A stretch of 64,000 bases of DNA from Escherichia phage MIZ6: the sequence record OR192075.1, one strand, 5' to 3'. Below the pieces are notes generated by a model. The model searched no databases and was not told where the DNA came from. It saw only the letters and a program-made list of their open reading frames with translations. The translations under genes and the position numbers were made by a program. Below, piece by piece: positions 31,132 through 31,830 of the stretch (its first letter is position 1; each line of letters starts with the position of its first letter).

Positions 31132-31830
31132 CTAACCACGGGTATAGTGTTCCAGAACAACTGTCAGATGAATATATTCTAATAGATCTTTCCAAAAGTC
31201 AACATCTGGTTCTTCCGGCATACCGTTTTTCTTTGCCTCTTCACGCGCGAGTTTAACACGCTCGTAGAGATCTTTCAATTCTTCCCGCACATTATCAAAG
31301 GTTCTTTCTCCTAACTTACACGCTAAAATAGAAGAACGTCGCGCGAGCGGGAATTGTAGATCACCAGTTTGATAGATTTCAAGTAGCTGATAACCAACAC
31401 GCAGAGCATGAGAAAGATCTTTCCAGTTACTGAAATACTTTTCAGATTTTGCTACCTGCTTTTTGAGATAACCAGACAAACCCCACATCCCAACATGATA
31501 GAATTTATCGCGATGTGTTCGGATGTATTCCCATTCTCTGGAGGATTCAATCAACATGTTACTAGGAGCGTGCACCATGTCAATAGCGCCGATATCGCCT
31601 TTACATGCCAGATTGATAAACCGTTTTAGACTGAACATATTAACGTCAATGTCGTCTTTGGTGTTCTTGATCCCTTGACCGCTAGTGCTTTGATCATAGT
31701 GTTCTTTCATCGATCCTAAGATAATTTCTTTCGCAGTCGGAACAAAGATACCACGATAATCTTTATCGGAGTTTTCAGTATCAAGGCCGTATAAGTGAGA
31801 TCCGAAGACCATTTTAACCATTGTATGCAT
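31132..31830 (-). CDS. predicted polymerase-beta-superfamily nucleotidyltransferase
   Basis: 232 aa; N-terminal FGSHLYGLDTENSDKDYRG (GS-x9-SDxD signature) then helical C-terminal region. Confidence 0.6.
   Translation of the reverse strand: MHTMVKMVFGSHLYGLDTENSDKDYRGIFVPTAKEIILGSMKEHYDQSTSGQGIKNTKDDIDVNMFSLKRFINLACKGDIGAIDMVHAPSNMLIESSREWEYIRTHRDKFYHVGMWGLSGYLKKQVAKSEKYFSNWKDLSHALRVGYQLLEIYQTGDLQFPLARRSSILACKLGERTFDNVREELKDLYERVKLAREEAKKNGMPEEPDVDFWKDLLEYIHLTVVLEHYTRG

Follow-up and report, generated by a model that had tools for sequence, protein, structure and literature searches.

The nrdC.11 locus and its surroundings

On the minus strand at 31132..31830 of the window (the whole stretch of 64,000 nucleotides of Escherichia phage MIZ6 DNA that was analysed) lies an orthologue of nrdC.11, encoding a pol-beta nucleotidyltransferase of the RlaP family (PF10127), as identified from the open reading frame list and from Pfam and PHROG matches. 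The reading frame given in a preliminary description of this DNA was recovered at exactly these coordinates; it begins with ATG, ends with TAA (the stop codon is included in the interval), and specifies a protein of 232 aa. A Shine-Dalgarno-like GAGGG (31838..31842, minus strand), with GAGG as the putative ribosome-binding site, lies 9 nt 5' of the ATG.

Across a 3-kb region around nrdC.11, we found 100% identity to Escherichia phages MIZ2 and MIZ3, and 90-99% identity to 56 other phages of the RB49 group among the matches listed (at least 95% in most), all belonging to Krischvirus, Straboviridae. Database entries name the reading frame 'nucleotidyltransferase' in MIZ2 and nrdC.11 in RB49 and Phi1. 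Comparison with RB49 revealed 18 nucleotide differences within nrdC.11, 17 of them at third codon positions, and a single conservative replacement in the protein, I94V. GEC-3S differs at 14 positions, each time synonymously, which brings the count for both comparisons together to 31 synonymous differences out of 32. Among the matches listed, 57 phage records encode a protein of at least 99% identity, and the DNA flanking the gene is 97-99% identical in most Krischvirus records. Among Krischviruses, nrdC.11 is under strong purifying selection.

The upstream neighbour of nrdC.11 (vs.6, 31917..32333, minus strand), previously described as GrcA-like, does encode a glycyl-radical domain (Pfam Gly_radical, E 1.5e-16). 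This domain occupies residues 78-119 of a 138-aa protein, whose N-terminal extension of ~75 aa is without a Pfam match. The window also encodes a glycyl-radical enzyme, the anaerobic ribonucleotide reductase NrdD (13031-14893), together with NrdG (11120-11629). Between vs.6 and nrdC.11, a pattern scan identified a terminator-like hairpin with a T-run (31883..31907, minus strand; 10-bp stem including 5 GC pairs), at the same place as a terminator annotated in phage GEC-3S. A sigma-70-like promoter candidate, TTGGCT-17-TATGAT with TG, overlaps this terminator (31861..31889, minus strand; 9/12 in a consensus scan); promoter-like sites in the region are not far above shuffled sequences in number, and the GEC-3S annotation has no promoter at the candidate site. 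A functional link between nrdC.11 and the GrcA-like gene was considered and set aside. Given the hairpin between the two genes and the different neighbours of nrdC.11 in T4 (mobD and nrdC.10, in place of the GrcA-like vs.6 and small paralogous reading frames of Krischvirus), their adjacency looks incidental.

Downstream of nrdC.11, three small reading frames (30916-31110, 30674-30919/30934 and 30281-30616, all on the minus strand) constitute tandem paralogues of 33-43% identity that share the pattern T..Y..T...I.L..C.HL....W; they belong to phrog_6261 and phrog_15978, neither of known function. The first of these starts 21 nt past the nrdC.11 stop and may therefore be co-transcribed with it. 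The early region is rich in RNA-metabolism genes: regB lies ~0.9 kb downstream of nrdC.11, and other parts of the window contain dmd and goF. Also located in this early region is the macro-domain protein Tk.4 (28339-28794, minus strand; Pfam Macro, E 3.3e-6), which is annotated as a 'phosphatase'.

Family placement, catalytic residues and predicted fold

Searches of Pfam placed NrdC.11 in RlaP (PF10127, full name 'RNA repair pathway DNA polymerase beta family') at 53.6 bits (gathering score 23; E 3.4e-14), the match spanning residues 7-191 and profile positions 24-198 of 249; no second Pfam family was detected at E <= 1. The name RlaP was reportedly coined by Burroughs and Aravind in 2016. PHROGs returned phrog_388, 'nucleotidyltransferase' (E 2.1e-79), and an NCBIfam search gave no match. 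Among PADLOC models at E <= 1, no nucleotidyltransferase or Hailong/HalB model matched; an unrelated CARF-HEPN model gave the sole match, which was weak (E 0.032). The preliminary description had proposed a pol-beta-superfamily nucleotidyltransferase, to be assigned to a subfamily by profile search. The superfamily is supported by the RlaP match together with intact catalytic residues, and the subfamily returned is RlaP. CD-NTase, AbiEii and minimal NTase membership were set aside with no Pfam or PADLOC model matching; the restriction of Pfam matches to RlaP, combined with the negative PADLOC results, argues against a CD-NTase, AbiEii or Hailong-type protein. We regard it as close to certain that Krischvirus NrdC.11 belongs to the RlaP / NrdC.11 family.

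Homologues of NrdC.11 were identified by tblastn in 1,723 phage records, mostly from T4-like phages of enterobacteria, Aeromonas, Acinetobacter and Vibrio, and also from Mycobacterium, Gordonia and Bacillus phages. An exhaustive HMMER scan of 1.84 billion proteins yielded 3,575 cluster representatives at E <= 0.001. Orthologues are often mis-annotated as 'thioredoxin' (e.g. P0017, P0020 and P0035) and in one case as 'HNH homing endonuclease', apparently on account of the gene name nrdC.11 or of neighbouring genes. Sequence searches of a PDB copy without the structure of the Pseudomonas fluorescens RlaP (PfRlaP), using either the single protein or a profile of 21 sequences, gave chance-level matches only; these comprised haemoglobin, a SAM sensor and a glycosylase, and were discarded.

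The pol-beta signature FGSHLYGLDTENSDKDYRG corresponds to residues 9-27 (31750..31806, minus strand) and includes G10-S11 and the metal-binding D22-x-D24 (alignments A1/A2). This is the GS...SDxD peptide on which the preliminary description was founded, and its motif residues are invariant in 21 homologues. Across the alignment of these diverse sequences, no variation is seen at G10, S11, D22, D24, D60 or D62, and W136, K137, H141, R144 and Q148 are also invariant. Relative to bacterial RlaPs, G10 and D22 remain invariant, S11 and D24 are kept in most sequences, and D60 and D62 line up with D/E residues. The segment D60-I61-D62 (31645..31653, minus strand; alignment A2), at the start of strand 61-67 of the predicted structure, is a candidate for the third catalytic carboxylate, which we infer to be D62 or possibly D60. 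Placement in a non-catalytic family, an outcome that had been named as counting against the original proposal, is not what we observe, as the catalytic residues are intact.

An AlphaFold2 model generated from the 21-homologue alignment (pLDDT 91.5, pTM 0.87) divides the protein into two domains. The N-terminal NTase domain (residues 1-96; 31543..31830, minus strand) is composed of five predicted strands and two helices, and the C-terminal domain (residues 98-232; 31135..31539, minus strand) is all-helical, with W136, K137, H141, R144 and Q148 located on helix 136-155. Elements assigned in the N-terminal part were E2-9, E23-30, H33-38, E44-48, E61-67, H68-76, H80-86 and E93-96. Strands and helices extend to residue 96, followed over residues 98-230 by helices alone, the terminal one at 210-230; the helical C-terminal region noted earlier is therefore borne out by a confident model. 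Our model agrees with an independent one from BFVD for the identical protein, the two superposing at a TM of 0.97. The order of domains, NTase then helical, is as described for PfRlaP.

Biochemical information on the family comes from a preprint, not peer-reviewed, by Carruthers, Fatma and Huang (December 2025), concerning RlaPs of P. fluorescens and P. aeruginosa whose genes lie between rtcB and rtcA (10.64898/2025.12.29.696909). In the PfRlaP crystal structure, an NTase and a helical domain are separated by a cleft, and the last helix packs back on the NTase domain (10.64898/2025.12.29.696909). Both enzymes, PfRlaP and PaRlaP, put one or two NMPs (or dNMPs) on RNA 3'-OH ends with a preference for Mn2+, and did not act on DNA or protein, E. 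coli proteins included (10.64898/2025.12.29.696909). As acceptor, both favour the 5' half of a mimic of cleaved tRNA over the natural 3' end of tRNA, and when a tRNA has lost one nucleotide of its anticodon loop, their action ahead of ligation brings back part of its aminoacylation (10.64898/2025.12.29.696909). Furthermore, they labelled rRNA-, tRNA- and fragment-sized species in total E. coli RNA and accepted single-stranded RNA (10.64898/2025.12.29.696909). The two enzymes display little NTP specificity in vitro, which leaves faithful restoration of the wobble base unexplained (10.64898/2025.12.29.696909). These characterised Pseudomonas proteins belong to cluster-1a, apart from the phage clade, and T4 NrdC.11 is listed in a separate RlaP cluster 5 of unknown function (10.64898/2025.12.29.696909). 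Since only 'some' PF10127 genes are described as ligase-linked, such linkage is not required for RlaP membership (10.64898/2025.12.29.696909).

We also recovered bacterial RlaP homologues from plasmids by tblastn. Plasmid P2 of Deinococcus gobiensis carries an RNA repair operon of the organization Hen1 - NTase - NTase - Pnkp, both NTases of which score 144-172 bits on PF10127. Alignment by hhalign of the phage NrdC.11 profile with a bacterial RlaP profile, built from Deinococcus and Bacillus sequences in place of Pseudomonas RlaPs, gave 99.8% (E 1.9e-29) and covered both domains. Two further homologues reside among genes of nucleotide metabolism, one amid nrdI-nrdE-nrdF-thioredoxin on B. thuringiensis plasmid pAM65-52-3-235K and one amid thyA, dfr, tk and dUTPase on a B. 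pumilus plasmid. Both neighbourhoods resemble the nrdC/tk surroundings of T-even phages, and phage-like early-gene regions may explain them. With regard to substrate, which the preliminary description gave as unknown, that statement no longer holds at the level of the family, two members of which extend RNA 3'-OH ends by one or two nucleotides according to the preprint. By analogy with these two distant relatives, NrdC.11 is probably a template-independent RNA 3'-end nucleotidyltransferase.

Comparison of the model with solved structures using Foldseek identified ANT(4'), Hailong HalB, LinB, AAD(9) and Tam41 (E 5e-5 to 1e-3, TM 0.26-0.46). These matches define a broad KNTase-like architecture and do not override the assignment to RlaP by sequence; they are also the basis for two other views of the protein. 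One is that NrdC.11 nucleotidylylates a protein or small molecule, inactivating a host factor or toxin, on the model of aminoglycoside and lincosamide nucleotidyltransferases or of the MNT partners of HEPN toxins. ANT(4') and other antibiotic nucleotidyltransferases (6un8, 1kny, LinB, AAD(9)) are likewise two-domain and KNTase-like, and have the best Foldseek E-values against the PDB; they differ, however, in acting on a small-molecule acceptor and in lacking any sequence-family match, with TM values of ~0.25-0.40 and 10-14% identity. With similarity to such enzymes confined to the fold (TM 0.26-0.46, 10-14% identity), no sequence-level match to their families in Pfam or PDB searches, and neither E. 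coli proteins nor DNA serving as substrates of the two tested RlaPs (10.64898/2025.12.29.696909), we consider nucleotidylylation of this kind improbable.

The second view is that NrdC.11 produces a nucleotide or oligonucleotide signal, for example a HalB-like oligodeoxyadenylate that would hold a Hailong-type effector off, as a decoy form of anti-defence. HalB (PDB 9dbh), which makes poly-dA by tyrosine priming and has the HalA channel as its partner, is the closest solved structural neighbour of NrdC.11, at fold level only and with 12% identity. No HalA-like partner is annotated among the genes near nrdC.11. Such an activity is very improbable, given that no nucleotidyltransferase or Hailong model of PADLOC matched at E <= 1, that identity to HalB is limited to 12%, that the protein instead satisfies the RlaP sequence model, and that the characterised RlaPs stop after one or two additions and take no DNA acceptor (10.64898/2025.12.29.696909). 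We assign a similarly slim chance to the more general suggestion of a decoy enzyme, rather than a repair enzyme, whose short (oligo)nucleotide products, or tags on host RNA or protein, would silence a nucleotide-gated defence effector.

An insert-less form of NrdC.11

The junction KSEKYFS, at residues ~129-135 (31426..31446, minus strand), is the site at which T4-type NrdC.11 proteins carry an insert, as located from a BLASTP gap, the alignment and linker length. T4 NrdC.11 (336 aa, Tequatrovirus) is an orthologue of the Krischvirus protein (BLASTP E 1e-50, ~45% identity over the shared segments). Their BLASTP alignment contains a 106-residue gap, the Krischvirus protein being 104 residues shorter, and the missing block sits between 'KKQVAKS' and 'NWKDLSHALR'. 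The match of PHROG 388 to the Krischvirus protein is also broken into two stretches. At this junction the inter-helix linker comprises 11 residues in the Krischvirus protein versus a median of 102, and in bacterial and actinophage RlaPs it is again short, at 12-26 residues. Modelling of a long form of the T4-like kind (pLDDT 87.2) showed the insert to be a separate alpha/beta module (residues ~131-240) that interrupts the helical domain between its halves.

Short forms account for five of the ~150 closest among the 3,575 cluster representatives, the query's own cluster included. In a rough neighbour-joining tree without support values, they occur at three places inside the long-form T4-like clade, the query grouping with P0002, P0143 with P0230, and P0153 standing separately. 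From this scattered distribution, it seems that an insert specific to the clade was lost secondarily and that the short form is not a retained ancestral state. Krischvirus NrdC.11 would accordingly appear to have returned to the compact bacterial architecture through insert loss, which might also alter the substrate of the protein.

A different consequence of insert loss would be that it inactivated the enzyme, leaving a decaying remnant whose reading frame persists without function. Consistent with such decay are the shortening by 104 residues relative to T4 NrdC.11 and the dispensability of the T4 gene, as laboratory growth of T4 tolerates a deletion of nrdC.11-mobD.3 (PMC9825161); dispensability is expected of a counter-defence gene, yet it is also uninformative. 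Conversely, all catalytic and family-invariant residues are kept, bacterial and actinophage RlaPs have the same short architecture, and the AlphaFold2 model is compact and confident. Furthermore, substitutions among Krischviruses are nearly all synonymous, and the protein remains at least 99% identical in the 57 listed records, within surrounding DNA that is 97-99% identical in most. A remnant is therefore extremely improbable, and the conservation of the core, of the catalytic residues and of the selection pattern argues that the short form is functional.

Candidate RNA-repair partners and the proposed role

Pnkp and Rnl1 of phage T4 represent the textbook case of a virus mending tRNA cut by its host. 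RloC-like nucleases also excise a nucleotide, and this was held in earlier work to defeat repair by Pnkp and Rnl1. RlaP enzymes have been put forward as an answer to such nucleotide-excising nucleases, and T-even phages carry one of them, NrdC.11. For the RlaP family as a whole, a role in tRNA repair is already on record as a proposal in the literature. Iyer et al. 2021 repeats the prediction that RlaPs replace nucleotides removed by RloC-like nucleases, and reports that the distribution of RlaPs in jumbo phages mirrors that of RNA ligases (PMC7824862).

The genome that harbours nrdC.11 encodes both members of the T4 pair, each ~86 kb from the gene: a Pnkp with AAA_33 kinase and HAD_PNKP phosphatase domains, and an RNA ligase 1 with RNA_lig_T4_1 and T4_Rnl1_C domains. 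Within the 64,000-nt window, there is no RNA ligase, Pnkp, Hen1 or Rtc gene and no operon-level link, nor are there tRNA genes. A second, stand-alone PNKP-type HAD phosphatase of 158 aa was also identified outside the window (MIZ2 46968-47444; HAD_PNKP, E 2.9e-13), which has in addition a weak, sub-cutoff Pfam match to a 'Swiss Army Knife RNA repair' HAD domain. An annotated 'RNA ligase' at 39032..39496 (minus strand; 57B in MIZ2/RB49) was rejected as a partner. Upon inspection it proved to be Acb1 (PF23474, E 1.5e-51), an anti-CBASS phosphodiesterase for which the product name 'RNA ligase' in databases is misleading.

Closer linkage is found elsewhere in the family. In Gordonia phage Kudefre, an RNA ligase precedes the homologue by ~3 kb and six tRNA genes follow it immediately. 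Positions 1-5922 of the Kudefre stretch examined combine, in one block, the RNA ligase, a ribose-phosphate pyrophosphokinase, a nicotinamide phosphoribosyltransferase, the RlaP homologue and the tRNA cluster. The pyrophosphokinase and phosphoribosyltransferase form an NAD-salvage pair, and the block is a possible counter-defence island. For the homologues of mycobacteriophages Faith1 and Myrna, no link to a ligase or tRNA gene was observed in the stretch examined.

The best explanation of the locus as a whole, to which we assign a probability of roughly 0.55, is an active Krischvirus RlaP that serves counter-defence through tRNA repair with Pnkp and Rnl1. Under this scheme, two divalent metal ions, probably Mn2+, would be coordinated by D22, D24 and D62, the third carboxylate. 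They would serve to transfer an NMP from an NTP to the 3'-OH of an RNA lying in the cleft that separates the NTase and helical domains, one or two nucleotides being added without a template. Following cleavage of a tRNA by an RloC-like, nucleotide-excising host anticodon nuclease, the phage Pnkp would heal the ends, RlaP would refill the missing nucleotide on the 5' half, and RNA ligase 1 would then seal the loop. As Rnl1 joins 5'-phosphate ends, an RlaP product ending in 3'-OH would suit it (10.64898/2025.12.29.696909). For the specific step in which NrdC.11 cooperates with Pnkp and Rnl1 on tRNAs left short of a nucleotide by a host anticodon nuclease, our expectation falls somewhat short of even odds; it is the best available biological hypothesis, drawn from family-level guilt by association. 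Milder than the suggestion of a decoy enzyme is the reading of NrdC.11 as the missing third enzyme of T-even tRNA repair, which would let Pnkp and Rnl1 beat nucleotide-excising anticodon nucleases such as RloC. The possibility of an anti-defence enzyme, raised in the preliminary description, would then narrow to counter-defence by RNA repair.

An RNA 3'-end nucleotidyltransferase might also function independently of Pnkp and Rnl1, by rebuilding damaged tRNA 3'-CCA ends or by tailing host or phage RNAs with an effect on their stability or use. RlaPs can use single-stranded RNA and label varied species of total E. coli RNA (10.64898/2025.12.29.696909), nrdC.11 is physically unlinked to ligase or kinase genes in both Krischvirus and T4, and many genes of its early region concern RNA metabolism (regB, dmd, goF), all of which would be in keeping with such a function. 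However, the recurrent partners of the family in bacteria and other phages are RNA ligases, Hen1 and Pnkp, and the Pseudomonas RlaPs prefer the cleaved-tRNA 5' half over the tRNA 3' end (10.64898/2025.12.29.696909). We therefore consider this alternative unlikely, and continue to favour counter-defence tRNA repair together with Pnkp and Rnl1.

Public records and the literature already contain the gene, its annotation, its assignment to a family and the hypothesis on its function, and as a finding of a genome scan the locus adds nothing unexpected apart from the insert-less form. Its main value lies in providing a minimal enzyme for the long-standing idea that T-even phages can mend RloC-type tRNA damage. 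Being naturally minimal (232 aa), strongly conserved and encoded in a genome with Pnkp and Rnl1, Krischvirus NrdC.11 constitutes a convenient test subject.

Compared with known systems, Krischvirus NrdC.11 resembles bacterial RlaPs in its compact length, short inter-helix linker and NTase-then-helical order, with only 21-28% identity to the members compared. Bacterial RlaPs are found in Hen1-Pnkp or RtcB operons, whereas the phage gene adjoins no RNA ligase, Pnkp, Hen1 or RtcA/B. With T4 NrdC.11, which also matches PF10127 and PHROG 388, it has in common the GS/DxD/D motifs and a conserved WK..SHA.R..Q helix, and the two genes occupy the same general early, non-essential part of the T-even-type genome. 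T4-type NrdC.11 proteins measure 300-345 aa and contain an alpha/beta insert of ~100 aa, whereas the 232-aa Krischvirus protein is without it; this insert-less form with the compact bacterial architecture is the only new detail that the locus contributes.
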